A stretch of 64,000 bases of DNA from Vairimorpha necatrix (GCA_036630325.1 CP142732.1:124001-188000), one strand, 5' to 3'; shown: positions 23,801 to 63,741, numbered from the stretch's first letter. The notes: a model not told the origin generated them from the sequence alone. Numbers and translations are program-made.

Positions 23801-24125
23801 AAAGGTGAAAGAAAAACAATATGAGGAGATACTAAAATTCAATGAAAGAAATAAAAACCGAGAAACCGAACCACAATTTTCAGAGGGGGATAGCGTTATT
23901 ATAAAAACGGAAACAGGTGTCAAAAAGGAAGAACCCAAATTTAAGGTTAGAGGTTTAATTTTTAAAGTTTTAGAAACAACACATATCTGGTGAGGACAGA
24001 TAACAAAACTATTAAGCGACATTCTTATCAGCTGAAATTAATAATAGACGAATGTTTTTAAGAGGGGGATGTTGAGATTTGAAAAATTATATTTTATAAC
24101 CTTAATTTTAGAATAAATATGTTTA
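20810..24125 (+). mobile_element. Ty3/Gypsy element E with 56-bp LTRs, degraded
   Basis: Direct repeats 20810-20865 and 24070-24125 (2 mismatches), PBS TGGTGGAGAAT (tRNA-Ala-like), PPT AGAGGGGGA. CFRCRRPGHLAKDC, VFDSGT, YVDD, RNase H and integrase in broken ORFs. No TSD seen. Confidence 0.88.
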
Positions 24126-35692: not shown

Positions 35693-35980
35693 AAAACTTT
35701 AAGATGTTTTCATTGTTTCCCATGAAAATATTGATGTTTATACCTTTATCGTTATCTCTTCTTAATGATTCAACTATATAAATAAATTATGAAAAAAATA
35801 AAAATAAATTTTATAACAAGGTGTCTATAAAAATGAAACAAGGTTTCTATAAAAATAAAATGAGGTGTCTATGATATCCTAAATATCATAAAAATAATTT
35901 ATAAATATTTCCCTCCAAATTCTTCCAGTTTTCCCTCCAACATTTATTTAATAATTTTATCCGGAGAGGGGTACGGAGTA

Positions 35981-38900
35981 ATGGAAAGAAGATCTAATAT
36001 TAATAATAAAAATATTTTACATACTTTCCTAAGTGGTGGATACCACAAGTTAAATTTAACAAAGACGTATCCTAAACTAACCAAAAGGATAGAGATTAAA
36101 GAACAGAGAAACATGATCAGCTTCGAGATCAATGTTAAAGGCCTAAAGCAGCCTATTATCAAACAATTAGAGATTGTAAACAACATCGAGAAAACCAATA
36201 TGCTAGAATGGTTTCGAAAGTTCGAAGAGCTACGTAATAAACTGGAATGGGACGAGGAAGAGACTCTCCTAGTATTACAAAATTTAATTGAAAATAAAGA
36301 ATGGAAAGAAAAGACAGTTCTAAAAATTATTTAAAAAGTAAAGAGGAATTATTAAGTGTCGCATATCCACATCACTTATTTTCAAATCTGGGAATTAAAT
36401 TGTTAGAGATTAAACAAAAGAATTATGATTTGATAGAAGATATGTTTGTCGATATCCATGCCAAGCTTGAAGTGGCGGTTTTTTTAGAAAAATATACCAT
36501 AAGTGAATATGAGCGAAGATTTAATAAAATTTGTTTGAATGCCTTGTCTGACGCTACCAAAGACTATGTGATGAAATTAAGTATCAAGAGTGTCAAGGAT
36601 ATTATAAATCTATTGGTAAACTTGGAGAAAGAATTGGTAGTCAGAATTCAGAATGACTTGGAGTTATCAAGAAATGCCCACGTCGAGATAAATGAACCAA
36701 GACAGAGAAATGAGATGAATCGATGGTGTAGCTTGCATAGATCAAGAACTCATAACACAAGTGAGTGTTTCAGTAAAAATAGGCGAATCGAGAATAAGAA
36801 TAATAAGATTTACACAGATGAATTAAAAACAAATAAAAATCTTAAGTTTTCTCATTGTAAGGTAGTTTTAAAAGAAAAGTCCGAATATTTAACAGTAAAA
36901 CTTCCAATATCAATTAAGGGCCACACCGTAATCGCTATTTTAGATACAGGATGTACCAAAAATTTAAAAAGTTTAAAAAAGGTTAAGAAATTAGGTTTCA
37001 TGGCAAGAAAAGACAGAGAGTTTGTATTTATATTTGGAAACGGTTATCAGGAAAAATCAGATGAGATAATAGAAGAGAAGATTAGTATAAATAATTTAAA
37101 TATAAACATTGATTTAAGATTGCACGTGATAAAAGAATTATCAACAGACATAATCTTAGGAGTAGAGTTTTAAGTGAGAATCAAATTATTCTAAATTTTA
37201 TAACCCAAACAATACATCATAATAAGAATATTATTAACATGGTTAACGGATTACCTCAACCATTCGAAGAAAACAATGATTTATTAATGCAAAAATGCTT
37301 TTCAATAAATGAGGAAAATGTCAGCATGAAAAATACTTCAAAAATAATACAATATATAAAAAATAATGATTTGTATAAAGAGATGAAAATTAAAAAAGTT
37401 TCATTTGATATCAACACAAAAGAGGATTTGAAGTTGATAAATAAGAAATACACTATTCCACATAAATTCCTTATAGCGACTAAACAAGAGATACAAAGAT
37501 TGCTAAAAGAGAAAAATATCAAGTATAGTGAAAGTAAGTATAGCAGTCCAGCGTTTGTTATTGCTAAGAAAAATGACGAGATAAGATTAGCAGTAGACTA
37601 CAGAGAATTAAACAAAAATATAATAGATGAATTAGATGTTTTGCCCAAAATTAAAGATCTGATTAACGAGGTCAAAGGGGCAAAATATTTTACTAAAATT
37701 GATTTAAAAAATGGATTTAATCAAGTACCCATAGAAGAAAATTCTATGAATTTAACAAGTTTCAAAATTTTAGGAAACGTGTACAAATATACTAGAATCC
37801 CATTTGGTATTAAATCTGGTCCTAAAATATTCCAAAGGACCATCAACAAAATAATAGCTGAAATACCGAATGTGGTAGTATACATTGATGATATTTATAT
37901 ATACACCACAACCAAAGAAGAGCATAATAAGATTTTATGCCAAGTATTAGATAGGTTGGCTAGTTACGAAGTAAAAATTAACTTTGAAAAAAGCATTTTC
38001 GGAGTTAAAGAAGTTGAAATGTTGGGACTAATAATAAACGAAAAAGAAATTAGACCAAATGTAGCTGTTATTGATAAATTGGTGTTAAAATTAAATATAT
38101 CAAAACGCCGAGAATTACAGAAAATTTCAGGGGTATTGAATTGGTACCGAGAATTTGAACCAAATTTTAGTGCTAAAGTATTGAACTATACGGATAAATT
38201 AAAAGGAGCAGAACAAAAGATAGAACTAACAGATAAAGAAAAGCAAGATATAAAAGATTCGATCACGGAAATTAAAGAAAATGAAAAATAGTGTCCCCTA
38301 AATACGACGAAGAATTCTGGTTACAGACTGACGCATCTGATAAAGCCATGGGAGCAGTATTATTCCAAAAACATGGATGCATAGGATATTATAGTAAGAA
38401 GTTTACAGAAACTGAGATAAACTACACGATTGTTGAAAAAGAGATGTTCGCAATCTTACAGAGTTTAATATTTTTTAAAGGATGCATTCTGGGATATCAA
38501 GTAAAAATTATGTGTGATAACAGAAATTGCTTATTCGAAACAAAAAATAATAATAGTAGAATGATAAGATGGAAATTAAGGCTTAATGAATATAATTTTA
38601 CATTAGAAAGCATCGAACGAAAGAAAAACGTAATCGCAGACTATTTATCGCGAATGTCATCAGATGAAGTACTGCAAGTAAAGAGTAATAATGGAAGGGA
38701 AGATAATATATTACTAAAAGAGACGCCGGCAATTACAACAATTAAATAGAACGGTAAACTTTATATTAAGCCCAATGAAAGTGAAAATTTAGTCGAATAT
38801 GCACTTAAAAAGCAAGCATGCAGGGATGTTTGTACTATATAACAATTTGAAAGATTATTATTATATAAATAACATGAAAGAAGTCATAAGAAAAGTAGTT

Positions 38901-39679
38901 AACAGTTGTCAGAACTGTAAATTTAATAAAAAAATTAGCTATCACAGATTTGAAAATAAACTAAAAATTAAAGCAAGAGCGCCGTTTGATAAAATTTGTT
39001 CAGACATATATGGTCCAACAAAAATAAATAATAAAAAATGGTATATTATGACTATAATTGATGTTTACACAAGATACACAAAGGTATATAAATTAAGAGA
39101 AATTACAGATAAAAGAGTGGTAGAGTGTTTTGGAAAATGGTTTAATATATTTCACCATTTAAAAACAATAATTACTGATAACGGAACACAGTATACTAGT
39201 AATTTAGTAAAAGAATTTACTGATAAGAATGATATAAATCTTATACATGTTCCGAAATACCATCCACAGAGCAATGGTATCTGTGAGAGAACAAATAGCA
39301 CTATCTCTGAAATAATCAGATTATATAGAAAGGAATCTTTAGAAAACATAATAGAAAATATAGAGATTAGACTTAATAAGAACTATAGAAGATCAATAGG
39401 ATGTGCACCTGAAGAATATGTTACAGGTACCAATCAATATGATCCTGAAGACAGAATCCAGCTGAAAAAAATATCAAGCAGTAAGAAACCGTTACAATTA
39501 AGAAAAGTTTCGTCGAATCAAAAATCGGAGATAAAGTATACGTGAAAAACTTTCAAAGCAAGAAATAGGAAAAGGCATTTAAAGGGCCATACATAGTAGA
39601 ATTAGTTAGCAAAAATAACAGATGGATCAAAGTCAAGGAAAAATATGAATAGGTTCATATTGCGGATACTAAAAAATAA
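35981..39679 (+). pseudogene. Gag-Pol of element B, split by stops and frameshifts
   Basis: WCSLHRSRTHNTSEC, ILDTGC, VDYRELN, YIDD, LQTDAS, SDIYGP and ITDNG across six ORF pieces. Confidence 0.92.
36049..36060. other. Perfect 12-bp palindrome GTTAAATTTAAC at the PBS position of element B
   Basis: 1 nt after the 5' LTR end (36047). No TGG tract. Confidence 0.9.
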
Positions 39680-40262
39680 AATCTAAGGAGGGGCGGATTA
39701 TGATATCCTAAATATCATAAAAATAGTTTTTAAATATTTCCCTCCAAATTCTTCCAGTCTTCCCTCCAACATATATTTAAAAATTTTATCCGGAGAGGGG
39801 TACGGAGTTATGGAAAGAAGAAGTAATATTTACAATAAAAATATTTTACATACTTTCCTCAGTGGTGGATACCACAGTGTCTATAAAAATTAAACAAGGT
39901 TTCTAAAAAAATGGAACAAGGTGTCTATAAAAATGAAATAGACTGAAAAACAAATGGTGAAATTCATCTAAAGATTCATTTATTTAATTTTTAACCAGTT
40001 TCATTGGTTTTTTTCCCTTTTACCTATATATGTTATTTTTTAATCGGTTATTCGATAAATTTTCTATTATTTCCTTTGGCTCACCATAAAAAAAACTCAA
40101 TTTATTTATTTTTTTGTTTTCGCATTAGTGTCAAAATCTTTTTTTTATAACAACTAAATCCCCAATAGAAAAATCATTGATAGAATTATAAACACATTTT
40201 CTGTCCATTCAAGCTAAATTATCTTTCATTACACACTGAAACTTTTCCGGCATCGTGTTTAC

Positions 40263-41349
40263 GGTTAAGTTGCGATGTTACCCTCCCCCACCATTAAAAA
40301 AATAAAAAAAAAGACAAAACTAAAATTTATTCAATTAATTCAAAGTCAAATTCGCGGGCTAAATCGTAATTTAAAAACCATATATGTTGAACTTCAAAAA
40401 AGCATAACATTCTTTCAAGTAGTGATTCTCTATAAATTAACTTAAAACGAGCTATATAAAGTTTTCGAATGAGATTCATCAGAGAACCATGGCTTGTTCC
40501 TTCTTTGCGCAATTCCCTTTTAATTTCAGACCACATTCCCTCAATTGTTTAGGAGTGGGCGCCTGTTGTTGGATTTACAAAATTTTGGCTATGATTTACA
40601 GTTAAATGTAAATAGTTATAATCCGGACATAGTTCCGAAAACCCTTCATAACCCCGCCAACAATCAGTAATAATTGTAGATCCAGGTGCGATTTTTCGTT
40701 TTATTAAATCGACCATAGTATTTCTTGATCGATTTTCAACAATTTCGAAAAAAGAATTGCTGTCTCCTCTTACTACTCTACCAACAGCCCCAACTTGGTA
40801 TTGAAGGATTTTACCGTTATGGTTTTTACTTTTGACAAGTAATGTCTCTTCTATTTAGACTATGCAATTTAAACCTCCTATGGTTTTGTTTCTTATATAG
40901 TTGAAATAGGATAAGAATACAGCGTCATTAAAACGCGTAAACCAGCGAGATACGGTACTACTATCTATATCCAATTCGATAGTAGCGTAAACATTGTTTT
41001 CATCTTTAACCCATTTACACAGCAAAATTAAAAAATCTTCGATATCTAATCATGAACTTTTAAAAAGCCTTGTTTGTAACTGTTACCTATGTTTGAGCAT
41101 TTTCACCCATTTCGTCGTAAGTAACAACGATATTTGTCCAAATTATTTTTAATTTTGGTCATGGGTTTCATGCACTTATTGCACATCGGTACCTTTAATA
41201 TATTTTTTTGAAGAAGGAATATAATTAATTCCTCTTTTTTATATATTAATTTTCTAAAATTCTTGATATTCATTTTAGGGGTATAATTTTAGTTTGGTCT
41301 TTTTACTATTTTTTTAGGGGTGGAGGAGGGGGAACATCGCAATTTAACC
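40263..41349 (-). mobile_element. Merlin/ISXO2-like transposon, degraded
   Basis: TIRs GGTTAA(G/A)TTGCGATGTT. Transposase remnants ~40327-41273 (IGGLN, IITDCWRGY, VNHS, MWSEIKR). No clear TSD. Confidence 0.82.
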
Positions 41350-41398
41350 AATTTATTTACTAAAATATATGCGAACATGCAATCATAAAATTTGAAAC

Positions 41399-41714
41399 TG
41401 GGATGTTATGGACTACATCACAATAACAGGTGTCAATAGTGCCATCTGTCAAACATTTCATCTATGACATGTCAAATCGTGAATAAATTAACAAACAAAA
41501 GAATATTGTAAAAACATGCTTACAAATGAGAAAGCACTAATCTTTATCAAAATTCCTGAACAACTATTAAATTAAAAATAAAATATAAAAAGAAGTCTGT
41601 CTTTGAAGGGTATGGAATATCTGAGGAATAGAAACACCATCAATAAAGTTATTAATATTAACAACATTTTAGAATGCTATTTTAAATATAGCAAAGTCCC
41701 GTTTATATAGGACA
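41399..41714 (+). repeat. Solo LTR (316 bp)
   Basis: TG...CA termini, TSD GAAAC. Homologous to 17149-17488. Confidence 0.85.
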
Positions 41715-41782
41715 GAAACAAATTAATGAAGGATTACAAAAAAATATAAATGATCTTCGCTGAAAATGAAATTTAAATAATA

Positions 41783-44700
41783 TGTTAACCATTTATTTAT
41801 TAAGGGATCTAAACCCTACATCCCCCCTCCAGACGGGTAGTCTCTCCATCTTCTAAACAACTCTTCCTTATCTCTTTCAAATCATAATGCCTCTTTTTAA
41901 CAATTTTACCATCCAGTAGTCTCACAATATATGAATCATTTTCACTTATAGCTACGATCCTTCCGCGACCCGTGAATCTTCCCTTGTCTGTTTTCGCACG
42001 TGTACCTAAATTTTCTCTCCTAGCGATTCTTACCTCTTGGCCTACTGTAAATGTCTCTCTGTGTCTTCTCTTGAATCGACCAGCATATTTTCCATTTTCA
42101 TCATTTTCAATTATAACTTCAGCAGTTTGATCTCTCCACGCTTCCATCGGCGTACATTTTATTGCTGTATGTAGTGTATTATTATATCCTTTGATTGCTC
42201 TTTCTATCTTTTCAGAAATATTCCCATCATTTTGCTTTATCAATGTCTCTCTTATAGTTCTGATGCATCTCTCGATTCTACCATTACTCCTATGAGCTTC
42301 TAAGCCCACTTTCCTATGTTTAATATCATTAATACTACACCATTCTTTAAATCTATTACTTACAAACTCTTTTCCGTTGTCTGTCACATATTCCTCTGGA
42401 AATCCATCTTCCCTTATCCACTTTTGTAATACCTCTATAACTTCACTACTCTCTTTACATCTCAAATTCGAACCCCACAACCTTCTAGTAAAGTAATCAA
42501 TACCCAGTAACACATACCTATTCTCTCCACCTATGTCCATTAAATCCAACGCCACTTTCTCCAATTTCTTTCTAGTTACTACGAAATCACATCCTCCTGT
42601 GTTTTTCCTATTGTTAATCCCACATATTTCACAATTCTTAATTACCTTATTAATATGATCTTTCATACCAGGCCAATACCATCTTTGTTTAATGTTATAA
42701 TAAGTGCCTTTGACACCTCTATGGTTTAACTCCTCATGTACTCTTGTTATTTCATGTTCTCTACTATCTAGGCTCAATATCTCTTTCACCTCACCTGTGG
42801 AAAATTCCCAATACTGTTTACCGTCCTTTTCTTTAATATGTTTCTGCTTTTTTCCCAAAATTTGTTTTTCTATCACTTCTTTTCTCTTGTTGTCCTTTTC
42901 TTTTTGTTCATCCGAAACTTCTACCTGATCATACTGCCTACTTAACGCATCTGCATCTGTCATCAACTCCCCTTTCACATACTCTATTGTAAAGTCAAAC
43001 TCTTGTATCTGTTCTACCCATCTGTTTATTCTGTTATTATTGAAGTATGGCTTATTTCTGATCTCTGCTAATGCTTTATGATCCGTCATCAAATGAAATT
43101 TCCTTCCTCTCAAATCACTTTCAAACTTCTTTATTCCAAAAAACACCGCCAACATCTCCTTCTCACTTATCGTATATCTTCGCTCGGTAGGAGTCAACAT
43201 TTTCGATGCCCATTGTATCGGAATCCACTCACCCTCTTTATTTTCTTGTAATAGAATTGCTCCGATCCCCGTATCACACGCATCAGTTCTTACTCTAAAT
43301 AGCTTTTTTCCGTCCGGAATCTTCAACTTTTTCATATCTCTCAAGCCTTGCTTCATATCCTCAAAGGCTCTTTCCATATCCTCCGTCCAATTCCACTTAA
43401 CATCTTTCTTTAAAGCCTCAGTAAGCCTTACTGTTCTATACGCATAGTTGGGAATAAAGTCTCTAAACCAACCAGTTAGTCCTAAAAATCTTCTTAACTC
43501 TCTAACACTCTCAGGTTTTCTATATTCCAATGTCTCCTGCTTTTTAATCTCATTCGGTCCCATGACCTCCCCATTAATTGTTACTCCCAGCAACATCACC
43601 TCATCTTTTTTGTATTGTATCTTTGTTTGGTTTATTCTCAACCCACACTCTTTAAACTTTTTAATTACCCTCTCTAGTAACTCGTCATGCACTCTTACGT
43701 CTTTACCATGAATAACTATATCATCCATATATACTTCCACGCCTTTACCTCTGAATTCATCTAAAACTCTGTTCATTACTCTCTGCATTATATGAGGCGA
43801 ATTCTTAAACCCCATAACCATACTATTCCATTCGTATACTCGACCATTCACTTCAAATGCTGTTTTGTGCTTATGGTGCTCCTCAATCTCAATATGATAA
43901 AACCCTTCTTTTAAGTCGATAACCGTAAATACTTTTGACCCCTGTGTGGCTCTCATAATATCCTTAATTAACGGTAGTGAGTACGGGTCCTTGTCAACCA
44001 AATCGTTTAACGCCTTCAAATTGCTTACCAATCTTACGTCCCCATTTGGTTTTTCAAGTGCTCTTATTGGACTCCTCCACTCACTTTTGGAACGTCTTAT
44101 AACCCCTCTATTTTCCAACTTATTCAAGTACTCCTCAAATTTCACCCTAAGGTAGTATGGCACATTCTGCCCACTTTTCACAACCTTTTCACCTTGCTTA
44201 GTATTTATTGGACACTTCTCTCCTGTGAGATATTTTATCTTTTCTTCTGATTCTTTAAAAACTTCCGGATACTTTTCAATTAAATTTTCTAACTTATTTA
44301 CTGTTTTACATCTTTTCCCTTCATTGTTGATAATTGGTTCTTTCTGTAAAACTTGTTCCTTTTTAATTTTATATTTTTCCCTACCAGCTACACTTTCATG
44401 ACATTCTCTAGCGTAATGCCCTTCTTTCTTACATATAAAACATTTTGTAGTTTCTCTGATTTCTCTTCTTTTCCTATACATCCTAAGATTTTCTTTTCTT
44501 TCTTCCCTAAACTCTTTCAACACTTTATCCATAATCTCTTTAATCATTTCTTGTCTTTCTTCTGACTCTCTCTCAAATTCTGCTCCTTTTTGTAAGCCTT
44601 TATAAATTTCCTCCCAACTGCTCCTTCCGTCACAAAAATTTTCAAAAATATAATTCTGCAAGTTCGCAGATGCCAAATCCATAACATCTTTCCACTCAAC

Positions 44701-44857
44701 TTTCTCAACTTTCAATATTAACTTTAGTCTCTTATCTATCCTAATTGCCTCTTTCTCTAATGTTCTAGCCTCTTGACTACGGGACTTTCTTGTTTCCCTG
44801 TTCATCCTTGTGTTCGCCATGTTAACCATTTATTTATTAAGGGTTCTAACCCCTACA
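41783..44857 (-). mobile_element. Intact minimal Ty3/Gypsy element with 38-bp LTRs
   Basis: LTRs 41783-41820 and 44820-44857 (36/38 identical, TG...CA), TSD TAATA, PBS-like TGGCGAACAC, PPT GGAGGGGGGA. Confidence 0.95.
41809..44829 (-). CDS. Polyprotein: short Gag with CCHC knuckle, RT, RNase H and integrase, no recognisable protease
   Basis: CFICKKEGHYAREC; YMDD; VRTDAC...EKEMLAV...TDHKAL; HEELNH/CEIC, ALDLMD, VTDNG, SNGRIER. No D(T/S)G motif between knuckle and RT. Confidence 0.95.
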   Translation of the reverse strand: MVNMANTRMNRETRKSRSQEARTLEKEAIRIDKRLKLILKVEKVEWKDVMDLASANLQNYIFENFCDGRSSWEEIYKGLQKGAEFERESEERQEMIKEIMDKVLKEFREERKENLRMYRKRREIRETTKCFICKKEGHYARECHESVAGREKYKIKKEQVLQKEPIINNEGKRCKTVNKLENLIEKYPEVFKESEEKIKYLTGEKCPINTKQGEKVVKSGQNVPYYLRVKFEEYLNKLENRGVIRRSKSEWRSPIRALEKPNGDVRLVSNLKALNDLVDKDPYSLPLIKDIMRATQGSKVFTVIDLKEGFYHIEIEEHHKHKTAFEVNGRVYEWNSMVMGFKNSPHIMQRVMNRVLDEFRGKGVEVYMDDIVIHGKDVRVHDELLERVIKKFKECGLRINQTKIQYKKDEVMLLGVTINGEVMGPNEIKKQETLEYRKPESVRELRRFLGLTGWFRDFIPNYAYRTVRLTEALKKDVKWNWTEDMERAFEDMKQGLRDMKKLKIPDGKKLFRVRTDACDTGIGAILLQENKEGEWIPIQWASKMLTPTERRYTISEKEMLAVFFGIKKFESDLRGRKFHLMTDHKALAEIRNKPYFNNNRINRWVEQIQEFDFTIEYVKGELMTDADALSRQYDQVEVSDEQKEKDNKRKEVIEKQILGKKQKHIKEKDGKQYWEFSTGEVKEILSLDSREHEITRVHEELNHRGVKGTYYNIKQRWYWPGMKDHINKVIKNCEICGINNRKNTGGCDFVVTRKKLEKVALDLMDIGGENRYVLLGIDYFTRRLWGSNLRCKESSEVIEVLQKWIREDGFPEEYVTDNGKEFVSNRFKEWCSINDIKHRKVGLEAHRSNGRIERCIRTIRETLIKQNDGNISEKIERAIKGYNNTLHTAIKCTPMEAWRDQTAEVIIENDENGKYAGRFKRRHRETFTVGQEVRIARRENLGTRAKTDKGRFTGRGRIVAISENDSYIVRLLDGKIVKKRHYDLKEIRKSCLEDGETTRLEGGCRV

Positions 44858-44893
44858 TAATATATAAAAAAAATGTGACATAATATTCATAAG

Positions 44894-47800
44894 TGTTGAC
44901 GTTAGACGAAATATGAGATTTAGTTGAATTGTATTTATTTTTACCCATGATTGTTATTCCAAAAAGGTATTTATATTTATTTCTGAAACATTGTTTCAGA
45001 CTGAGACGTTTTACTGATTAGAATTACCAATCATGTTATCTGGACTATCCGCCGTCCACACTCTTCCCTTCAGTAAATAAGATATCGTCTTTTCAGTTTC
45101 GGTTACGGCAACTAAATCCTTACGATTAATGTCAAAGGCTTTTCTTCCACAAAGACTTCTTATCTGATAAGCACCCTTGCCTTTCGCGGCAATAATTTCA
45201 AACTCTTCATCTTCGTATGGTGATTCAAATTTTTGTTAAAAGTGCATGTTTCTTCAGAAGAACCATATCTCCTATTTCCAAGTCATTAGGGTCTGACTTC
45301 TTAAGGTTTCGTTCGTTAACCTTTTCTCTTTTCTTATCTTCTACTTCCTTCACATTTTGCTGGATGACATTTAATTTCTCTTTCTTCTGTCTTACGTATC
45401 CAATTGGATCAACAAAATATAGCTCGAAGTCTTTAGGGATCTCAAGTAGATTACTTGGAATTATCGGCTCTCTACCGTATAATAACATAAACGGTGAAGC
45501 ATTAAAACGTTCTACTATCCCTATCCTATATTGCATCAGCACATATGGGAATACTCTGTCCCAGTTTTGTTCGTGATCTACCATGGCTTTAGATATTTTT
45601 TCTATTATCGTCTTGTTTGTTCTCTCTGCAAGACCATTAGCCTGTGGATAATATGGAGATGAATGTTTAAATCTAGATCCCCATAGTTCTGCTACTGAAT
45701 TTACTAATCTGTTTGTAAACTCCAAACCCTGATCACTCCTGATCGTTTTGACCGTTCCATGTCGTGAAAATACATCTTCCACTAAAAAATCTAGCTATCT
45801 CTTCAGCCGATTTCTTTTTTAACGCTTTACCTTCGACCCATTTGGTAAAATAGTCGGTTGCCAGAACAATGAATCTATTTCCTGATTTGGACTTCGGAAG
45901 AGGACCGATACAGTCGATCCCCATTTTCATAAACGTTCCTTCTAAGTCTGGGGATACTGCTTAAACGGTCTTTTTCTTTTAAATTTTAAGCAAGTTCTAC
46001 AAGTTCTTAACACCTCCTTTACTTTTTCTCTAGATATTCCTGCCCCTGCATGATGTATCTTTAAAAAATTATAAGTGTTATTGGCACAACTATGTCCCGT
46101 TAAAGAATGAGCCTCTAAGATGTATTTCGTAGTCTTCTGCCCATCATCTTCTTTTGTCAACGACTTCAATTGAACTCTTGAAAGGCAATCTGCTACAACA
46201 TTATTTTTTCCTTCTTTATATTCAATGGTAAATACCATATCTGCCAAAAACATCAACCACCTCGCTATCCTTCCCTGAGGATTCTTGACTTTATAGAGCC
46301 ACACAAGAGACTTGTGATCCGTTCGAATGATAAATCTTTTATGTAAATAATTTTTAAAGATTTTCACCGCATAAATAATGGCTAGGGTCTCCTTTTCGAG
46401 AGTAGAATAATTTCTCTCAGCGGGCATTAGGTTTCGACTACAAAATCTGATAACTACATCTTTCCGTTTTTTTCTCTGTTTAAGAACACCGCCTATACAA
46501 TAGTCAGAAGCATCAGATTCTATTATAAACGTTTCTTCCATATCTGGAAGTTCTAAAAAGGCCGAATTTATTAATTTTAGTCGCAAATCATTTACTTTTT
46601 TCTCGACTTCTGTTTTCGAGAATTCTCTTTCCGGTTGATTATTTCATTCAATGCGAACGTTTTATTCGGAAAGTTCTTAAAGTAGTTTCTAAAGTAACCT
46701 ATTCCCCCAACAAAAGAATGCAGCTGTTTAATAGTTTCTATTTTTAGCTTGTCCTTAAATGGTCCTAATCTTATTTCATCTGGAAACACTTTTCGGCGCA
46801 TCGGTCAGAACCCGGACTTTTTTTCTCTCTAAGGGTCCCCCCTTGGAGAGAAACGAAAAAAAATAATAATAATAAAAAACCATTCTATTCTAAGAAAACT
46901 TTGATAATTTCAATGAAGAACTCTCTTGAACTTTTGATGTTTTTATAAATTGCACATCTTCTTCTCCACTTAAATTCTTCCAAAAAATCAGGGATAGCAC
47001 TTTCTTTGATCCCTTTTCTAGCTATTATATCACATTTAAGATGTGACCAAGCACCTTCTATTAAGTTTGTGGTCTCTCCTGCTTCGTTTTTAAAGCCTTC
47101 ATCATGAATTACAACGCGATGATCACCGTTGATAGATTCTACTGCAGCGGGATAAGATTTATGACCATCAGTTATGCATGTAGTGTCATTTTTTATATAC
47201 TTTTTAAAAAACCGAGTCATCGTCTGTATAGTCCGGTTAGGTACTATTTCGATTCTCAGTTCTAACGTTCGCTCGTCTATCGTCCCTACCAACCACACAC
47301 AGTTTTTGACTGTGTCATATCTTTCCGATGGAGATTTGACAAACTTCCCCCTTACTATAACCGTTTCATCGGTCTGTGTCACTTCTTCAAATCCTCCAAT
47401 TTTTTTTTGGTGTTTGAGATTTTCTTTTTTCAGTGCTTCGTATATTTTTTTTAGCTCTGAAGACACTAGAAGCAGACACCCGGGAATTTTTGTTTAGGTT
47501 TAGTGTAGACTGCTTTTCAGTGAACGAATACAGAATATACAAATAATTATGTATAGGTATTCGGGGATTAGAAAATGAAGTTTTATCAAAAACTCCGATT
47601 GATGTTCCACATCCAGTCTTCCCCCTACACTTAAACCGGTGGCAGTTCATGTACGAATCGTCCGGTGTTAATATCATTATACCAGGACATTTCGTACATT
47701 CCATTGTTGTTTTTAGTAGATTTCATCCACTAACCAACATATTGCCTCATGTGGATCTTGGAATATTTTCGACCTACTGTCAAGCGGCTCCATACATACC

Positions 47801-50099: not shown

Positions 50100-53044
50100 C
50101 ATAAGAACTTAAAGCATAAAGTTGTAAAAACATACAGAATTGTTTGTATATAATGATTCGAAGTCTTGTAAACAAGATGATTGCATATAATTACATTCGA
50201 AAAAAAGATATGATACAACCCTTTTAATCTCTCAACATTAAATTGGGCATTTAATAGTAATGAAGGTTTTTTATATTTAGCAAGGAGAGAGGTATCTTTC
50301 CCACAATTGCATTTTAGTCTCTTGGCTGTTGAATTTTTATTTATATCGATCAAGGGTTAGGTCATGATTTTTTTTTTATTTAATAACCTTAACTTGTTAT
50401 TGTATTCTATTTTAAGTATAAAATTATCACTGCAATGAATAGCTTTCTTGGCTTTGAACATTTTGTTTGTTTTTGCTGCCGATTTTATTAAATATCCATC
50501 TGTTTTATACAAATATATGGCGGGAGCTCATCAAAACAAGATTTTACATTCCTCCTAGTCAAATCGCAGTAGTTTCTGTGTAAAATTCTTACGGAAGAAT
50601 TAAAAATATCCGTTAATAACAATATTTTACTTAACACTTTGACATATTGGCCATTATATGTTCGAGTAACGACATAAATACATACAAAATAGAGATGTCT
50701 TAATTCTTTAAATGTTGATCTTTCTGTTTTTATGTTAAAAATCTTAGAGTGTATATTCTTAGATAATTTTCATTTGATTCAAAGATATAAAAACATATTC
50801 CATCATTAAAAGTTTGGGAGTTGAAACAGAGATAGGGGGTTTATCATATGCTACAGATTGCGTCTTATATTCAAATCTTTGATATAATGCGGGTTGTTTA
50901 TACTATATAAGAACATTTATATTAATTTTGAACTATCCAAATCTTAACAAATATCTCTAACTTCTCAAATTATCGCTTGTATAATACAAAAAAAATTCAT
51001 CTTCTCCATCTTTGATATTGTGATACGAGTAATTGTAATTTAGTATCTGTTATTACTTCGTTGGCGTGTTCCTTTTTGATTTTGTATTACAATCACGGGG
51101 AAAATAAATTTAACAAAAGCTTATATCGTTTACGGGATCTAATTGCCTTGTTTGCTTTTTCGGGTGTTTTATTGTATATTTTTTTAATCAACTCTGGAAT
51201 TTTCAAATTTGATGGCCACTTACAAAGCAATTTAAGAATGTAAGATACATTCCCCTTTGCTAAATACCCAGATTAAAATCAAGTACTTCACGCTATATTT
51301 CCGTGTTCCCATGATATTATCGTAGTCTCACAAATATGAACACGTTTTTATATCCTATTTCATTTTATTAGTTTTATAAAAGAACTTTGCAATCATTATC
51401 TCATTTATAAAGGTCGCCTGAATTTATGATTAAATATCGGCAAAAAAGAGTACGATGTATTTTAAATTCCATGCCCTTGAAACATTATGTTTTTGTCTCT
51501 AACGAATAAAACGAAGGGAAATCCTTATTTAACCAGACAAACATAAAAAACTCATAAATACTTTGATTAAAAGTAGATAAAGGGTTTATCGAATATTCTT
51601 TGGCATGTTTTTTATTCATTAAATTTTATGTAACATATTATCAACTTTTAGTTCTAAAATAGTTTTTTTTGTTGAAAACATGTGGAATTTTCATCTTAGA
51701 TAAGTATTTTTGTTTTTTTTTTCATTTGTCATTCCTGACAATATTCTATCTTTTCATTTGTGGCAAAAAGGATTATCTATGTGAAAAAAATATCGCTTTG
51801 TTTTGAAAATTCTATGTATAATTTTGATAATTTAAATATAATATGAAATTTGTTTTTTAAAATATAAGATGTCCTACCTCTCGTCAAATATATCTAGCTC
51901 ATAAGGAGATTCCCGCTTTCATGATTTGGCAGTTGCATAGAAGTTACACAAATCTATATTATGATTATCTTTACTCATTCATTTTCATTTTTATGTTCTC
52001 ATAAGATATAGCTTTGTAACTGTTGTGACATTCTCATGTCATTATTTACTTTAAATTTTTATTATTAAATACCCCTTAACTTGGATATGTCTAACATGGT
52101 GGAGAATATTTCAAAACAAGACATAGTGGAGTTACTGGCTGATCTCACCATACAAATAACTGTTAAAGATCTGAAAGCTACATTAAAAAAAACTAGAAAG
52201 AAAGCTTTTAAATCCTTAACGGATGAAGAAAAAATTGAGGAAATTTTGGACAAAGCAGATATGGCTATAATCGAAGCCCATGAATGCTTAGAAAGGGATA
52301 AAAAACTAAGAAAGGTTTCTTACGAAGCATGGAAAGAATACATGTTTTCCATTTTTAACAAAAAAAATATCTAAAAGAGAATTCCAGAAAAAGAAGAAAC
52401 ATGTTATGAATTTTTTATAAGGATGAGAAAATTGGGAGATGCTATTATTGATGATGATGAGCTTATACTAGAGAATAGTTACCATGGATTGAGGAATTTG
52501 AGAGAGGAATGTGTACAAACAACACCTAAGTAAAAAATAATTGATGAAGAATTCCTAGATACTATAAGGAAAATAGAGGTAATCAAGAGAGAAGCGTATT
52601 TCAGAAGACTTAATACAAAACAAAGCAGCGCAACGAGAACAGCCCATAAGAGACAGCTGAATAACGTCAAACGGTCGATGAAATTATTGAAGAAAATTTA
52701 GTTTATAACAAGGGTCTTCGGTTTAGGGCCATTTTTGACACAGGTTCGGAAATGGTTTTATAGCAAAACCGATACAAGCACTCTTGTAGATCGGAGCATC
52801 TTTATTGAAAACGCCGATCTATTTATATACCTGCCTATTAGAAGAATTTACGTTAGATGAATATGTGGAAATAGAATTTGAGCATAGCAAAGAACGCTAC
52901 AAAGAGAAGTTATATATTTTACCAACGCGAAATGATAAGACGGCGATGATAGGACGTAAATGGATGATAACACCAAAGCCCGCAAATCCTATCACTGTAA
53001 TAACAGATTTTAATGAAGAAATAAATAGATTATGTGCTTATAAG

Positions 53045-53298
53045 TGTGGTGTTACCACCAGGGAGGCGGCCTGTTTGTAAATAGCACTCGATCGTGCTCC
53101 TCCCTGCAATATAATGTTGATTGTTATTATAATTATTTTTATTGTTTGATTTAATAGACTCCTTGTTTTCTCTTCTCAGTTTCATCCTTATGTGTTTGGG
53201 GTAAAATAAAAGGAAAATATTTATAGCAAAATATTTTCTTGAAAATTCATTTGAAGGGAAATAAATAAAAATAAAATAATGTGGTAAATAATACCACA
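53045..53298 (-). repeat. 5' LTR (254 bp) plus ~20-bp internal stub of another family, inserted in element G
   Basis: TG...CA termini with a terminal hairpin. Encodes MKLRR...STIECYLQTGRLPGGNTT. Insert flanked by GAAAT(AAA); removal restores the host frame DFNEEIKNEGIKG. Confidence 0.8.
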
Positions 53299-55473
53299 GA
53301 AATAAAGAACGAAGGAATAAAGGGATTTGAATGTAATATATATACTGAGGATGGTAAAAAGGTTGTAGATAAGTCATATCGAATACCCCAAGCATGGGAA
53401 GGGAAAATTGAAAAAGAAATACAGAGATTATTATCCAACGAATATATTAGAGAATCTCACTCTACGTGGTTAAATAACGTTAGACTCGTCAAAAAAAAGA
53501 TGGAAGCATACGGCTTACGATAAATTTAATCAAACTGATCAAAATAGTGGCACTAGATAGTTTTACGCTACCAAAGATAGAAGAGCATATCTACCGCCTG
53601 GGAAAAAGCAGATATTTTATTAAGATAGATTTGAAGGAGGCATTCTTTTAGGTAAAGCTAAAAGAGGACGACATGATGAAAACAACTTTCAGGATAAAAA
53701 ACAAGACATATGAATCCACTAGGATGCCTATGGGGATTAAGAACTCCCAGCAATATTTCAAAGAATAGTTGATAAAGTTCTTAAGCAAGAAATTGGGAGA
53801 AATTGGGAGAAATTGTTTCGCGTATTTGGATGATATTCTAAAATATACTGAAACCATTGAAGAGCATATAAAGGCAGTGGGAAGAGTATGTAAATTACTT
53901 AACAACGCAGGATTCTTAGCAAATAAAAAAAAAGAAACTAATAAAAAAAAGAGATAAGTTTTTTGGGGTCACAACATAACGTATAATAAGATAACTCCGT
54001 TGGCAAATAATACTAAAGGAATAAAAAAATATACAACCCCGAGGAATGTAGATGAGGTACGAAAATTATTAAACATTGTAAATTATTACAAAAAATTTAT
54101 AAAGAATTGCGCAGAGATATGCTACCCACTAGTGATACTATTAAATAAGAACAACCGTTCATTTGGGGAAAAGAACAAGAAACGGCATTTCAAACGTTGA
54201 AAGATGCATTAATATCGGTTTTATGCTTGTATCAACCTGATTTTACACGAGACTTTGTATTAACAACAGACGCATCGAACACGGGATTAGGTGCCGTACT
54301 TGGCCAGGAAATAGACGGGAAAGAAAACTAATTGCGTTCGCCTCAAGGCAATTACGACAGGCCGTTGAAATTATACGATTACAGAAAAGGAAATGTTAGA
54401 CACATTTTGGCAATGGAACATTTAAAATATTTCTTCATCGGAAGGAAATTTACAATTTACACGGCTCATAAGGCACCGGAAGCCTTAAACTGTAAGGGTG
54501 AGATAAATTCTCCTAGGATAATAAGATGGATAGAACGATTACAGATGTACGATTTTATATTACGATACAAAACATCTACAGATTTGGAGCAAGTTTATGC
54601 TTTATTGGGGCATTACAGGACGAAAATGCTATTGAAGAAAAAGAAATTGTTGATATGATCATGAAGGTACACGAAAAATTAGTTCATAGAGGCGCAAAAG
54701 TTACTCTTTTTTCAAAAAAAAAGAAGGATGTAATTAAAGTATAACACTAAAGAGAGTAAAGGATGTTTTAAATAGATGTTATAAATGAAAGAGTTTAATC
54801 CGGCGAGAATTAAAGGATTCTGGCACGTGGAAGCATTTGAACCCGGAAAAAAGTTGCTTTTGACATCATAGGACCGATAGAAGATAGATATATAATTGCA
54901 GCTATAGACTATTTCTCAAGATTTGCTTTCGCAAAAGTATTTAAAACAAAAAGTAGTGATAACATATTGATGTTTTTGGAAATTGTACACAAAAAGGTGA
55001 ATATAAAGACACTGATATCAGACGGCGCAAAAGAAAATATAAGTGAAAAGACACGAAATTGGTTATTGGAGAATAAAAAAATACAGCATATTACCTCGCC
55101 CTACCACCATTCTTCAAACAACAGAATAGAAAGATTTAATAATACTGTGGGCGAAGGAATAAATAAGCAGGATAAGAGCATTAGACTGTCGAAGAGAGTA
55201 GATAAGATGATTGAGGCGTGTAATTGTATAAGCCACAGAGCAACGGGGATGACCCAAAAGAGGCATTGGAATTAGAGAACCTCTCGGAAGTTAAAAGAAA
55301 ACATTTTGAAAACAGAATAAATAGATACAAGAGTTTATTCAAACCCCCCCCCCCGAACATAAAAAGTTAGAACTTAGGGATTTAGTCATTATACAAGACC
55401 CTATACACAAATACAAAGGGCAACCAAAGTTTGTAGAAACAGGAGAAGTTATAGGCATTTTGACTAACGATAC

Positions 55474-55724
55474 TGTTGTAGACTGTTAGTCTTCAACATT
55501 TATTTTATTTCCTTCCCTATCAAAACTATCATTGAATTTTCATGAATAAAATTTACTATAAATATATTTTCAGAAAAGGAAGGGTACACAAAAGGAGATA
55601 GATGAGAGGACCAAAGAGCGTCATTTTAGAGAGTTCAGAGGGACTGTAACAAATAAAAAACAATTTATTAAAAGTATTTTAGAATATTACTTTATAACCG
55701 GGAGGGTTTCCCCGGGATACCACA
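55474..55724 (+). repeat. Solo LTR (251 bp)
   Basis: TG...CA termini, TSD GATAC, ends GGATACCACA like elements B and H, encodes SILEYYFITGRVSPGYH. Confidence 0.88.
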
Positions 55725-58700: not shown

Positions 58701-59603
58701 TACTTGTGTGGGATCGTGTATTTTTTATTTGTCAGTCTTAAGTTCCCTTTGCTGCTCAGTTCAAATGCAATTCTCTTGATTTTCATCTCTTTGAATAACT
58801 CATTGTTTTTCATGTATTTTAATATCTTCGAGGTGTTCTCGGTGCTGACATTCTTTTCGTTTATGGCAAAACATCTTTGCAATAGTAAATCTCTGTTTTC
58901 CTCGTATGGAAGTGGTAATCCGTTAACCATATTGATAATCCTTTGGTTATTACAGATTGTTTGGGTGGCAAAGTTGAGGATGATTTGATTCTCACTTAAG
59001 AATTCTACCCCCAAGATTATGTCGGCCGATAGTTCTCTTATTACGTGCAGTCTTGTTGGGTTTTCAATATTTAGACTGCTTATTCGAATGTTTTCTTCTA
59101 TAATCTCTCCTGACATCTCCTGGTGTCCGTTACCAAATATAAAGTTTACTCCGATGCCCTTCCTCGTAGTGATCCCTAGTTGGTTCACCTTGTCTACGCT
59201 TACTAGGTTTTTAGTGCAGCCCGTATCCAATATGGCGATTACAGTCTGGCCGTTAATATACACGGGTAGTTTTACTGTTAGATACTCGGATTTTTCTTTT
59301 AAAATTACTTTACAATGGGAAAACATAATATCTTTATTGGATTTAAATTCCTCTTTCTTTATTTTGCTACTCCTATCTTCGTTTCTTTTATTCCTACTAA
59401 AGCAGTCACTAGTGTTATGTGTTCTTGACCTATACAAGCTACACCATCGATTCATTTCATTTCGTAGCATTGGTTCTCTAACGTCGGTCGAGGTACTTCT
59501 GGCTCGATCTAAATCACTATGTATTCTAGCGATTAGTTCCTTCTCCAGAGTTATTAGTAAGTGTATAATTTCTTTGATGTTCTTTACGCCAGCTTTCATA
59601 ACA

Positions 59604-62600
59604 TGTGTTTATTTTCCATAATGAGGGGTAAAAATAATAAGGATATATAACATCCCCCCTCCAAGACGGTAGTCTCATACTAGAACTCATGTATCCCAAG
59701 CAGACCTTTTAAATCATAATGCCGCTTTTTCACGATCCTACCATTTTCCAAACTAACTAAGTACGAGTCACCTCCGCAAACTTCCTTGATAACACCATAT
59801 CCTAAAAACCTTCCTTTCTCATACTTACTACAACCCGATAAGTTCTCTTTCTTCGCTACCCTAACTCTCTGACCTTTATAGAATTTCTCTCTTTTGCGAG
59901 TCACAAACCTCCTACTATAAAATCCTTCAGGTCCATTCTCGATCATAACATGGCCCGTTTCGTCTCTTGAGGCCTCAAACGGTGTACATCTCAACCCTTC
60001 ATGATAGCTGTTATTATAACGCCATATACATCTATTAACCTTGGCTTCAAAATCCACAGCATCATCTTTCAATATTCCTTCTCTTATGGTTCCTATTACC
60101 CTTTCCACTCTTCCATTACTTCTATGACTTTCTACGCTTACTTTCCTATGTAATACATTTTCCTTTGAACACCAATTCCTCATATATTCATTACTAAATT
60201 CTTTACCGTTGTCAGTAATTATTTCTACCGGTTTCATTCCTGATCCACACAACTGTTTTAAAAATCCTACAACCGAGCTTCCGCGTTTGTCCTCTATTAC
60301 TTTTCCCCAAACGATCCTAGTATAATAATCAATCACGACCAACACATATTTCCCTAAATCTCTAAACTCAATCAAATCCAAAGCAACCTTTTCCAAATAA
60401 AATCTTGAACTAACAAAATCACAACCACCACTCTTTTTCCTATTATATATTTGGCAAACTTCACACTTCTTTAAAACATCCTCGATATCCTTCTTCATAC
60501 CCGGCCAATAAAATTCAAACTTCATTGCATAGTACACTGATCCTAAACTTCTATGTCCCAAATTTTCATGAGCATTGACAATTAAACCTTCACGCAATTC
60601 TTTCTTTGGAATCTCCGCTTCTCTACCAGAGTCAAATACCCAAATTTCCTTCCCATCAACAACTTTAACATGCTTGTCCCATTTGCCCCGTGCCTGTTTA
60701 ATACTTCTCTCCTTATTCATTAGCGTTTTCTCATTTTCATGTACCCTACTCAGTGCATCTGCTACAACCATGGTACTAGGCTCTCTATATTCAATGCTAA
60801 AGTCGAACTCTTGAATCTTTTCAATCCACCTGTTAATTCTATTATTGTTAAATGCTGGTTTATTTCTAATCTCGATCAATGCCTTATGATCAGTTTCTAC
60901 CCTAAATCTTCTTCCGCGTAGTTCATATTCAAACTTTTTAATTCCCCAAAAGACTGCATACATCTCCTTCTCACTGATTCCATATCTCGTTTCCGTAGGC
61001 GTAAACTTTTTTGATGCCCACTGTACTGGTACCCAATTACCTTGATCATCTTCCTGCATTAAAACAGCACCCATTCCAACATTACTCGCATCCGTGCGTA
61101 ACAAAAATTCCTTATTATAATTAACAATTGCTAAACCTTTTAAATCCCTAATCACTTCCCTTAAACTAATATATTCTTTTTCCATTTCTTCTGTCCATTT
61201 CCAATTACTTCCTCGTCCTTTAAGAGAATCCGTCAACGCCAATGTACGTTTTGCATAATTATCAATATGATTTCTAAACCATCCAGCCAGCCCAAGAAAC
61301 TTCCTAACATCTGATACACACTCCGGTTTGGGAAATTCTAACGCTTCATTTTGCTTTATTTCAGATGGCAGTATCTCCTTGCCATTAACTGTTACTCCTA
61401 ACAACATCACCTCTCGTTTACATAATTGAACCTTAGCCAAATTAATTTTCATACTATTCTCCTCTAATATATCCACAGCCTCTTTCAACAATTTGTCGTG
61501 ACCCTCTCTTATCTTACTATGAATCACAATATCGTCCATATAAATTTCGATTCCCTTACCAATAAATTTTTCAAAAATCCCATTCATTATTCTTTGTAAT
61601 ATCTGCGGTGAGTTTTTAAACCCCATGACCATCGAATTCCACTCGTATACCTTTTTATTAAACTCAAAAGCCGTCTTAAACCTATCCTTCTCTTCAATCT
61701 CAATACTATAAAACCCCTCCTTTAGATCTATCACGGTAAAAAATTCAGATCCCTGTGTACTTCTAATAACATATCTTATCCTAGTTAACTCATAAGGATC
61801 CTTCTCTACAATGTCATTAAGAGCAATTAAATTACTTACTAATCTTATATCACCATTCGGTTTCTCAATCGCTCTAATGGGATTTCTCCAGTCAGATGTC
61901 GACCTTCTAATTATCTTTCTTCTTTCCAAACTATTAATATAATCTTCCGTCTTCTTCAACAAAGCCTGAGCTATAGCCTGCCCTTTTTTAACAACTTTCT
62001 TGCCTTCTTGAGTCTTGATAATACATTTTTCAACCTTACAAAAACTAATATCTTCATCCTCTCTTCCTCCTACCCGTGAAATAATCTCCTCTAAATACGC
62101 GATGCCTCTTACATCCCTTCTCAACAGAACTCTCTTATTATTGTCCCTTTTGCTATAATCTTGTATATCCCCTAAATTTTTCTTCTTACGTTTCCCACCA
62201 TCAACATTATAATAATCACATTTGTCCGAATTGGAATCGTCATCACATTTCCCCTCTAAGTCTAATTGCACTTTACATTTACCAACATAATTAAAACTAC
62301 TTTTATTTCTTCTGTCTTCAGAATCTCGCCTCATTCCCCTACAAAATCTAACACTATGGCCTAACTTCCCACAATTGTAGCAACGCATATTCTTTTTATT
62401 TTCCTCACGAGACAACTTATTCTTCTCCTCAAATTTAGCCCATAACGCTAGGGACAACTCTTCAAATTCTTTTTTTTTCACTTGTTCCTTTTCCTCCTGA
62501 ATAGCTAGCAACTCTAATTTTTCCTCAATTTCCTTCCAACTACCCTCTTGCGAGATCCTCTCAACAATAAAATTTCTCAATAAAATAGAACCTCTCATAA

Positions 62601-62787
62601 AAATTTCTAATTTAAATCCACACTCATCAATTTTCTCTAAAAACAACTCAAAAACAATCCTTTTAACCTCTTTTAATAATATTCTAGCCTCTTGGCCACG
62701 GTCCTCCTTTGTAGACCCATTTTCTGGTATCGCCCCCATGTGTTTATTTTCCATAATGAGGGGTAAAAATAATAAGGATATATAACA
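59604..62787 (-). mobile_element. Intact minimal Ty3/Gypsy element with 49-bp LTRs
   Basis: Identical LTRs 59604-59652 and 62739-62787, TSD TAACA, PBS-like TGGGGGCG (tRNA-Pro-like), PPT GGAGGGGGA. Removal restores the host frame KDYVMKAGV. Confidence 0.96.
59680..62754 (-). CDS. Polyprotein (1024 aa): short Gag with CCHC knuckle, RT, RNase H and integrase, no recognisable protease
   Basis: Start moved to MENKH inside the LTR, just after CCCC. CYNCGKLGHSVRFC, YMDD, LRTDAS, HENLGH/CEVC, ITDNG, SNGRVER. Confidence 0.95.
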   Translation of the reverse strand: MENKHMGAIPENGSTKEDRGQEARILLKEVKRIVFELFLEKIDECGFKLEIFMRGSILLRNFIVERISQEGSWKEIEEKLELLAIQEEKEQVKKKEFEELSLALWAKFEEKNKLSREENKKNMRCYNCGKLGHSVRFCRGMRRDSEDRRNKSSFNYVGKCKVQLDLEGKCDDDSNSDKCDYYNVDGGKRKKKNLGDIQDYSKRDNNKRVLLRRDVRGIAYLEEIISRVGGREDEDISFCKVEKCIIKTQEGKKVVKKGQAIAQALLKKTEDYINSLERRKIIRRSTSDWRNPIRAIEKPNGDIRLVSNLIALNDIVEKDPYELTRIRYVIRSTQGSEFFTVIDLKEGFYSIEIEEKDRFKTAFEFNKKVYEWNSMVMGFKNSPQILQRIMNGIFEKFIGKGIEIYMDDIVIHSKIREGHDKLLKEAVDILEENSMKINLAKVQLCKREVMLLGVTVNGKEILPSEIKQNEALEFPKPECVSDVRKFLGLAGWFRNHIDNYAKRTLALTDSLKGRGSNWKWTEEMEKEYISLREVIRDLKGLAIVNYNKEFLLRTDASNVGMGAVLMQEDDQGNWVPVQWASKKFTPTETRYGISEKEMYAVFWGIKKFEYELRGRRFRVETDHKALIEIRNKPAFNNNRINRWIEKIQEFDFSIEYREPSTMVVADALSRVHENEKTLMNKERSIKQARGKWDKHVKVVDGKEIWVFDSGREAEIPKKELREGLIVNAHENLGHRSLGSVYYAMKFEFYWPGMKKDIEDVLKKCEVCQIYNRKKSGGCDFVSSRFYLEKVALDLIEFRDLGKYVLVVIDYYTRIVWGKVIEDKRGSSVVGFLKQLCGSGMKPVEIITDNGKEFSNEYMRNWCSKENVLHRKVSVESHRSNGRVERVIGTIREGILKDDAVDFEAKVNRCIWRYNNSYHEGLRCTPFEASRDETGHVMIENGPEGFYSRRFVTRKREKFYKGQRVRVAKKENLSGCSKYEKGRFLGYGVIKEVCGGDSYLVSLENGRIVKKRHYDLKGLLGIHEF

Positions 62788-63299
62788 TAACATAATCTTT
62801 AGTGGCATCTGTTAACGAATTTAGGCATACTTCATTAAATCTTCTTTCGTATTCATTCTTAGTATATTTTTCTAGATACGACGCCACTTCTAATTTGGTC
62901 TGAATTTCCGTAATCATCTCCTCTATTAGGTCATAATTAGTCTGTTTTATTTCTAGCACTCTTACACCCGCCGAAGAGAATAGGTTTTTTGGGTAGGCTA
63001 TACTTAAGATCTCTTCCTTTAATTTCGCGTACGTCTTAGCATCATTTCCATATTGATTTTCATAACCTTCAATTACATTCTGCAGTACTATTAGATTCTC
63101 TTCATCGTTCCATTCTAGTTTATTGCTAATGTCTTCAAATTTTCTAAACCATTTTAACATGTTGGTTTTTTCAATATATTTCACTTTTTCTAATTGTTTA
63201 ATAATTGGCTCCTTTAGGCCTTTGATTTTGATTTCAAAGCTGATCATTTCTTTGATAGATTCAGTTTTTATCCTTTTGTTTAGTTTAGGATACAGCTTG

Positions 63300-63311
63300 G
63301 TTAAATTTAAC
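63300..63311. other. Perfect 12-bp palindrome GTTAAATTTAAC at the PBS position of element H
   Basis: 1 nt inside the 5' LTR boundary (63313). Confidence 0.9.
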
Positions 63312-63741
63312 TTGTGGTATCCACCACTTAAGAACATGTCAAGAATATTAATATTTATTTGTTTGTTTACCGTATTGGTTATTCTTCTTGTTTCCTGTTC
63401 TTTATTCATCTCGTACCCCTGGATGGATAAAATGTTTAAATATTTATCGGAGGGAAAAGTATTGGACTTGGAGGGAAAGATGTCAAATTTGGAGGGAAAT
63501 GTTAGTAAACATATCGTATGATATTTAGGATATCATAATTAGCTATATATAATTTTAATTATCATCTACTTTTCTTATTTCGTTGAACAACATTTTATGT
63601 AAATATTATATAGATTTAAAAATTTTTAAAGGCCTGAAAGCTGCACAATAAACGAACTTATGTCTACTATATCCAAGGATAATGCTATAAAAGATATAAA
63701 TGTTTTAATCATCTTTGATATCATGGGTTGTTTTTAATTAG

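Follow-up and report, generated by a model that had tools for sequence, protein, structure and literature searches.

The analysed stretch of the Vairimorpha necatrix genome (GCA_036630325.1, CP142732.1:124001-188000; 64,000 nucleotides, called the window in the following) is rich in A+T and densely occupied by gypsy-type elements and by IS1595-type (Merlin) transposases. Its minus strand carries a complete retrotransposon with very short long terminal repeats (LTRs), here named element A, which encodes Gag, reverse transcriptase (RT), RNase H and integrase in one open reading frame (ORF). Element A is a member of a single, old clade of protease-less microsporidian retrotransposons derived from Ty3/Gypsy elements, and a second family of the same lineage, element B, lies in the same window. 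Since the aspartic protease expected between Gag and RT is absent, element A is classed as a derived offshoot of Ty3/Gypsy and not as a canonical member. The coordinates of the features are collected in Table 1.

Element A shows the build of a Ty3/Gypsy element, with LTRs of the TG...CA type and a target site duplication (TSD), a polypurine tract, the order RT-RNase H-integrase, and the catalytic residues. The two LTRs are identical at 36 of 38 positions. The ORF starts at position 29 of the 5' LTR and its stop codon occupies positions 10-12 of the 3' LTR. The final A of the LTR and the TG of the primer binding site (PBS) form a second in-frame ATG, and the PBS is itself coding; the window contains no tRNA gene with which this PBS could be paired. 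The original prediction, made from the sequence alone, had described an intact 3,075-bp element with 38-bp LTRs, a 5-bp TSD, a PBS-like tract and a polypurine tract, one ORF covering 3,021 of the 3,075 bp from LTR to LTR, and about 130 amino acids (aa) of Gag before a CCHC knuckle, with RT beginning about 40 aa later. All of these structural claims hold, the N-terminal helix of RT starting about 40 aa past the knuckle. The DNA motif next to the purine tract, GAGACTAN(0-2)CCGTCT, has 2 matches in the window (elements A and B) versus 0.01 expected and is also present in the related locus L092; judged by eye, it falls in differing reading frames in the C-termini of the relatives.

Table 1. Features of element A, and the position of element B, counted from the first nucleotide of the window
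Feature	Position	Strand	Remarks
Element A, complete LTR retrotransposon	41783..44857	minus	3,075 bp; its LTRs are the top direct repeat in the region
TSD at 5' end	44858..44862		TAATA (plus strand), 5 bp
TSD at 3' end	41778..41782		TAATA, 5 bp
5' LTR	44820..44857	minus	38 bp; CCC at LTR position 15, AATAAA at 20 and 24, ATG at 29
3' LTR	41783..41820	minus	38 bp; contains the ORF stop codon; AATAAA 7 nt after the stop
PBS-like tract	44802..44819	minus	Starts with TGG; adjoins the 5' LTR; 18-nt length nominal
Polypurine tract	41821..41830	minus	Directly before the 3' LTR
Single ORF (P0001)	41809..44829	minus	3,021 nt; 1,006 aa, 119 kDa
Four-helix domain (aa 15-84), a probable N-terminal capsid lobe	44578..44787	minus	AlphaFold; profile match to sister Gags
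Long charged helix (continuous over aa 72-127)	44449..44577	minus	57% D/E/K/R; relatives have the second capsid lobe here
CCHC zinc knuckle, aa 130-143	44401..44442	minus	Pfam (129-144) and motif
Linker of about 38 aa where a protease is expected	44287..44400	minus	Profile scan
In-frame ATTAAA, weak candidate internal poly(A) signal	44367-44362	minus	Within the post-knuckle linker
RT, about aa 182-480	43390..44286	minus	D305, YMDD 367-370; Pfam RVT_1 259-418; borders approximate
RNase H, aa 481-631	42937..43389	minus	D516, E558, D583, D627; Pfam 481-611
Integrase	41860..42762	minus	HHCC 698/703/733/736; D762, D817, E853; Pfam 690-884; preceded by a charged linker
3' DNA motif	41831..41844	minus	Conserved; adjoins the purine tract; possible small hairpin
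Element B, second family of the lineage	59604..62787	minus	Identical 49-bp LTRs, 5-bp TSD, intact ORF without protease

Element A was compared with contigs from sequencing runs, with small-share runs excluded. Two contigs of run X1, possibly the window's own source, are collinear with element A over 41792-44837, with 9 differences and 0 gaps, and contigs of run X2 span most of the element. Because the X1 contigs are gap-free and collinear over this range, the gag-RT junction is no quirk of the window assembly. The X1 read depth is about 60-80 over element A and 12-55 in the flanking bins, which does not represent a copy number. Contigs of X1 and X2 also join position 41398 to 44863, the first base beyond the right TSD; this joint may be an empty site, but since it skips 41399-41782 as well, it is not counted as one.

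A protease-less lineage

The absence of a protease had been predicted from the short distance between knuckle and RT, and Pfam, profile and motif searches and a structure model all agree with it. The Pfam scan of the element A ORF yields no protease family at E<=1, the same scan matching aspartic-protease families in 4/4 ORFs of other types in the window, and no D[TS]G motif is found upstream of RT. Of 17 sister proteins, 15 went into a purpose-built protease profile, and two had been missed by the motif filter; the profile recovers 15/15 leave-one-out controls at 25.8-73.8 bits and gives 32-34 bits for two window controls from another group. With this profile, 0/49 lineage members match, all scoring at most 5.8 bits and element A 1.8 bits, where the 49 are the members in which 100 aa or more precede RT, and 7 truncated members were left out. 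Scans of the whole proteins of all 56 lineage members peak at 3.0 bits. A protease concealed in the longer linkers was rejected, P0013, P0021 and P0036 scoring below 1 bit. The AlphaFold model of the N-terminal 226 residues is helical, with no protease-like beta domain before RT. Precomputed Pfam lists are insufficient for establishing such an absence, as P0046 and P0047 list no protease yet carry one.

Element B is about 47-49% identical to element A at the amino acid level. The protein search with element A gave 127 matches, 120 of which were listed; the leading ones measure about 1,000 aa, and among the matches listed many relatives lie on contigs of 3.0-3.3 kb. Another 150 rows came from a profile search, most of them long proteins that are unrelated. 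Relatives of the lineage occur in Nosema, Vairimorpha and Enteropsectra, the nearest named one being from Nosema granulosis (86% over RT-RNase H), and identity to element A goes down to 43% among lineage members. Across 34 aligned members the RT catalytic residues are kept in 33-34/34 rows, and the RNase H residues and the integrase D-D-E residues in all ungapped rows. Signs of mobility are the target duplications, the identical LTRs of element B, and the nesting of element B in another element.

In a quick RT-RNase H tree of 102 rows, 55 rows form a protease-less group with a Shimodaira-Hasegawa-like approximate likelihood ratio test (SH-aLRT) value of 84. A careful tree, which used 57 of the 102 rows and included no named reference elements, places its 28 protease-less rows in one clade (support 96/89) nested among protease-bearing relatives. 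The sister of this clade is a group with four protease-bearing proteins, and the wider clade has a support of 99/95. The simplest reading of the tree is a single loss of the protease.

It is extremely improbable that element A is a dead copy, an artefact of the assembly or the product of a one-off deletion, in view of element B, the diverged relatives, which number in the dozens, come from several named microsporidia and form one clade, the intact catalytic residues, and the collinear contigs in other runs. What speaks for such a view are the two LTR mismatches and the differences from run X1, 5 of the 8 listed altering an amino acid, which indicate that this copy is slightly aged. The possibility, raised by the original prediction, that most copies carry a protease and longer LTRs is not borne out, since the relatives share the build of element A, and the minimal lineage it proposed is supported by element B, by the missing protease throughout the members scored, and by the LTRs, whose lengths in five families are 38, 49, 38, about 47 and 50 bp. 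At the level of the lineage, element B and the clade refute a one-off deletion; the activity of a single copy is a separate matter.

A scan of genome contigs found 4 loci of the lineage, and scans of metagenome loci (80) and viral contigs (11) found no lineage member, the best segments reaching at most 35% identity. Pieces of the lineage (L092-L095) had been assigned to genome bins under the labels Clostridium and Turicibacter, which is probably due to binning contamination. One protease-less branch (P0042, P0044, P0126, P0149, P0249) is also without the zinc knuckle. In the nearest protease-bearing sisters, P0046 and P0147, DRG or DPG replaces D[TS]G, and to judge from these motifs their proteases are possibly decaying.

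Gag, short LTRs and putative compact signals

The AlphaFold model of element A aa 15-127 comprises three helices and one 56-residue helix, mostly with a predicted local distance difference test (pLDDT) score above 90. The sister Gags consist of two parts; in the profile comparison, aa 17-84 of element A align with the first (E 1e-4 and 5e-4), and no alignment to the second is obtained. The first domain and the knuckle are just 45 aa apart, a distance that the model spans with a single unbroken helix (pLDDT 94-98), and element A apparently lacks the second, C-terminal capsid lobe. On moderate evidence, the Gag has probably retained one capsid lobe together with the long charged helix. Fold searches with a longer model returned Arc lobes (Z 5.1-5.8) and the N-terminal domain of Ty3 (Z 4.8, root mean square deviation 3.5, 70 aligned), both among unrelated bundles, and the Retrotrans_gag cluster scores of the sister Gag P0186 (0.95) and the element A Gag (0.86) are a lead only. 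Weighing against a capsid lobe, the domain-only fold search gave generic helical bundles and no capsid in the top 50; a Foldseek search gave nothing at E<=0.001. P0042 and P0126, both of the protease-less and knuckle-less branch, keep a two-part Gag. The existence of a two-lobe, knuckle-less and protease-less branch (P0042, P0044, P0126) suggests that the protease was lost first and the second capsid lobe later.

Autonomous Ty3/Gypsy elements typically have LTRs of a hundred to several hundred bp or more, those of Ty3 measuring several hundred bp, and the default minimum of common LTR finders is near 100 bp. The LTRs of elements A (38 bp) and B (49 bp) were seen at both ends, that of L092 (38 bp, 28/38 positions identical to element A) at the 3' end only, and that of L094 (about 47 bp, with inferred borders) at the 5' end only. 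The LTR lengths in the window are 38, 49, 56, 76, 166, 178, 227 and 257 bp. Two broken relatives, elements C and D (20810-24125 and 52021-55898), have 56- and 76-bp LTRs and the same PBS start, and element C also carries a protease motif. Retro S has 45-bp LTRs with a 3.6-kb ORF (PMC4202319). Short LTRs as a result of protease loss were rejected because element C and retro S combine short LTRs with a longer build. The working minimum LTR length is put near 38 bp. Such families will be missed or mislabelled if LTR finders apply a minimum of about 100 bp; P0269, a full-length lineage member of Vairimorpha ceranae, is annotated as "krab-a domain-containing protein".

Microsporidian genes are described to have 5' untranslated regions of less than 7 nt with a CCC-like motif before the start codon, and an AAUAAA near the stop codon that is recognised leakily (PMC2803860). 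The L092 LTR has CCC, AATAAA and ATG at the same positions as element A, and by analogy to the host genes these LTR motifs would be promoter and poly(A) signals. An LTR of only 38-50 bp may suffice because the microsporidian promoters and poly(A) signals are equally compact. Among 35 proteins, an internal Met close to the N-terminus is present in 23, and in 23/23 it is preceded by Y, H, N or D (background 12%), since the LTR end ACA followed by the PBS start TGG demands such a codon; a further 7 begin at the LTR-PBS Met, and 5 show none. These residues indicate that the start of the ORF is anchored to the edge of the LTR.

Possible function without a protease

The missing protease, the single clade, the kept catalytic residues and the signs of mobility support a reading in which the polyprotein works uncut. 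Of the two mechanisms that the original prediction named, an unprocessed polyprotein and a protease borrowed in trans, the evidence leans towards the first, and we give this reading roughly an even chance. In such a cycle, about 20-28 bp of LTR would act as promoter, transcription would begin immediately upstream of the ATG at position 29, and the transcript would end at or just past the LTR end, leaving a repeat of about 10-15 nt for strand transfer. The uncut Gag-RT-RNase H-integrase fusion would bind its own RNA via the knuckle, copy it from a tRNA primer and then integrate the cDNA, probably in a small particle or ribonucleoprotein held together through its one capsid lobe and its long helix instead of in a canonical Ty3 shell. 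If free Gag is required, internal polyadenylation directly past the knuckle could provide a shortened mRNA for it.

The linker between RNase H and integrase has a hydrophobic P2/P2'-type cleavage motif in 4/46 members (10 unscorable) versus 9/16 more distant relatives, and its content of charged residues is 55% in the lineage versus 28% in those relatives. The four nearest sisters scored are also without the motif, and two of them carry the DRG or DPG protease motifs, suggesting that cleavage lapsed before the protease was lost.

Just after the knuckle, the motif NKxxxxY is found in 19/42 knuckle-bearing members (19/24 of those with NK), against a background of 2/143 NK in Pol and 0/42 before the knuckle. 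In element B, the NK is encoded by AAT AAA (62307-62302, minus strand) and the Tyr codon starts 12 nt on, so that cleavage and poly(A) addition at the Tyr codon would complete a UAA stop; retro L, an Anncaliia algerae element compared below, shows the same AAT AAA and Tyr codons by eye. Internal polyadenylation yielding a Gag-only RNA is a lead, which NKxxxxY could mark. The signal looks ancestral in the lineage and is not evident in element A, which has an in-frame ATTAAA plus a TTA codon at the same spacing as element B; L092 has nothing comparable. The full proposal of a self-sufficient LTR retrotransposon without proteolysis, with a one-lobe Gag and a Gag mRNA whose stop is completed by polyadenylation about 13 nt after AAUAAA, appears rather unlikely to us; in it, internal polyadenylation would take the place of frameshifting as well as of the protease. 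Short cluster members extend about 75 aa past the NKxxxx site (15 of 31 cluster members listed) and were rejected as the predicted Gag-only product.

Several points weigh against an uncut polyprotein and the internal polyadenylation attached to it. Ty1 and Ty3 are reported to require their own protease, and protease-bearing elements share the same genome, so that a helper is at hand. The cleavage-motif rule was chosen after the linkers had been viewed. The NKxxxxY count is inflated by kinship (P0014 and element B are near-identical), and the NK codons were checked in only two DNAs, element B and, by eye, retro L. The motif is absent in the branch of element A and in the P0026 group, is found in 2/9 protease-bearing sisters, and could instead be a protein cleavage site. 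Among 12 sequences viewed, no Gag-only protein ends at it.

It is possible, though we think it less than probable, that element A depends on a helper, co-assembling by its one capsid lobe into protease-bearing particles and being cut in trans; with the same reservation, its own RT and integrase could then have been retained for sequence specificity or to outcompete the helper. In the double-lobe Ty3 capsid of 540 subunits, the C-terminal lobe connects the capsomers (PMC6525542), so a Gag without this lobe should not build the usual lattice alone, and one 119-kDa Pol per Gag would be hard to fit into such a shell. Protease-bearing elements are present in the same window and, by eye, in Anncaliia, and the Tyr of NKxxxxY could be the cleavage position. 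However, the cleavage-type motifs at the RNase H-integrase junction are gone, the closest protease-bearing relatives in the window (C and D) are broken, and the conserved NK sits 5-6 residues before the Tyr, outside the usual binding cleft of a retropepsin. A host protease or the proteasome could also trim the polyprotein in its flexible charged linkers, the post-knuckle linker being low-complexity and predicted to be partly disordered, but we regard this as improbable, as neither linker has a motif common to all members and the linker length varies from about 60 to 200 aa.

Among LTR retrotransposons and retroviruses, maturation by a protease and a capsid of two lobes count as core needs. An old mobile lineage without a protease and with probably half a capsid casts doubt on the rule that processing of their own protein is a precondition for such elements to move, and provides a natural test of whether this need is one of chemistry or of regulation; a 3-kb element is easily tested whole in yeast or in vitro.

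Known systems and neighbouring elements

An element of this build is already listed in a 2014 supplement, where retro L of Anncaliia algerae is given as complete, with an LTR of 50 bp and an ORF at 32-3049 in 3,127 bp, and is placed beside the Group 1 label in Fig. S1, the grouping being approximate (PMC4202319). By eye, retro L resembles element A in the LTR-PBS start, the Gag pattern, the knuckle, the short linker, RT and the 3' motif, the Group 1 sequences lying outside our tree; element A differs in having 38-bp LTRs and an ORF that runs into the 3' LTR. In three Anncaliia strains, retro L has 19, 20 and 45 hits, a further sign of mobility. The main text of the 2014 paper contains 0 mentions of "protease" and confines its remarks to the single ORF (PMC4202319). 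The available part of PMC13174016 similarly remarks on the single polyprotein alone, and PMC7313128 contains 0 mentions of LTR, gypsy, Ty3 or protease. No protease-less microsporidian lineage is described in the literature searched, the Nbr description, Repbase and most of the 2014 supplement lying outside this search. Element A represents a real, lineage-wide and apparently undiscussed Ty3/Gypsy-derived variant, the anatomy of which is well supported.

DIRS elements and hepadnaviruses are reverse-transcribing without an aspartic protease, and differ from element A in having no DDE integrase and no ordinary LTR with TSD. The single-ORF Tf1 serves as a further comparison element. Closer at hand, the sisters P0047, P0046, P0147 and P0202, and further out P0051, P0186 and elements C and D, share the single ORF, in several cases the LTR-PBS start, and in C and D the short LTRs, and differ from element A in their protease domain and two-part Gag. 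Ty3 shares the LTRs, PBS, purine tract, TSD, knuckle and the order RT-RNase H-integrase, and differs in its protease and its double-lobe capsid. Small size, short terminal repeats and a missing protease are also known from SMART, which measures 292 bp (PMC3281118), and from TR-GAG, which encodes only Gag (PMC4350172). Element A, with a full RT, RNase H and integrase, is not of the non-autonomous miniature type (TRIM, SMART, TR-GAG), which is without pol coding capacity. In the plant Ty1/Copia element EVD, an early-ended RNA supplies excess Gag (PMC5580714); there, splicing makes the stop codon and a protease is present, whereas here a poly(A) tail would complete the stop.

Element B lies in the gag region of a protease-bearing element with 227-bp LTRs (56244-63539), and both insertions look recent, since the LTRs of both elements are fully identical. 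The host element and two related elements (7136-11350 and 35870-39876) are without a TGG-type PBS, and in each the 5' LTR is followed directly by a perfect palindrome of 12 bp, which may reflect priming without a tRNA. Remnants of Merlin/IS1595-type transposases are found at 40327-41288 and 46885-47493, the second inside a neighbouring element with 166-bp LTRs.

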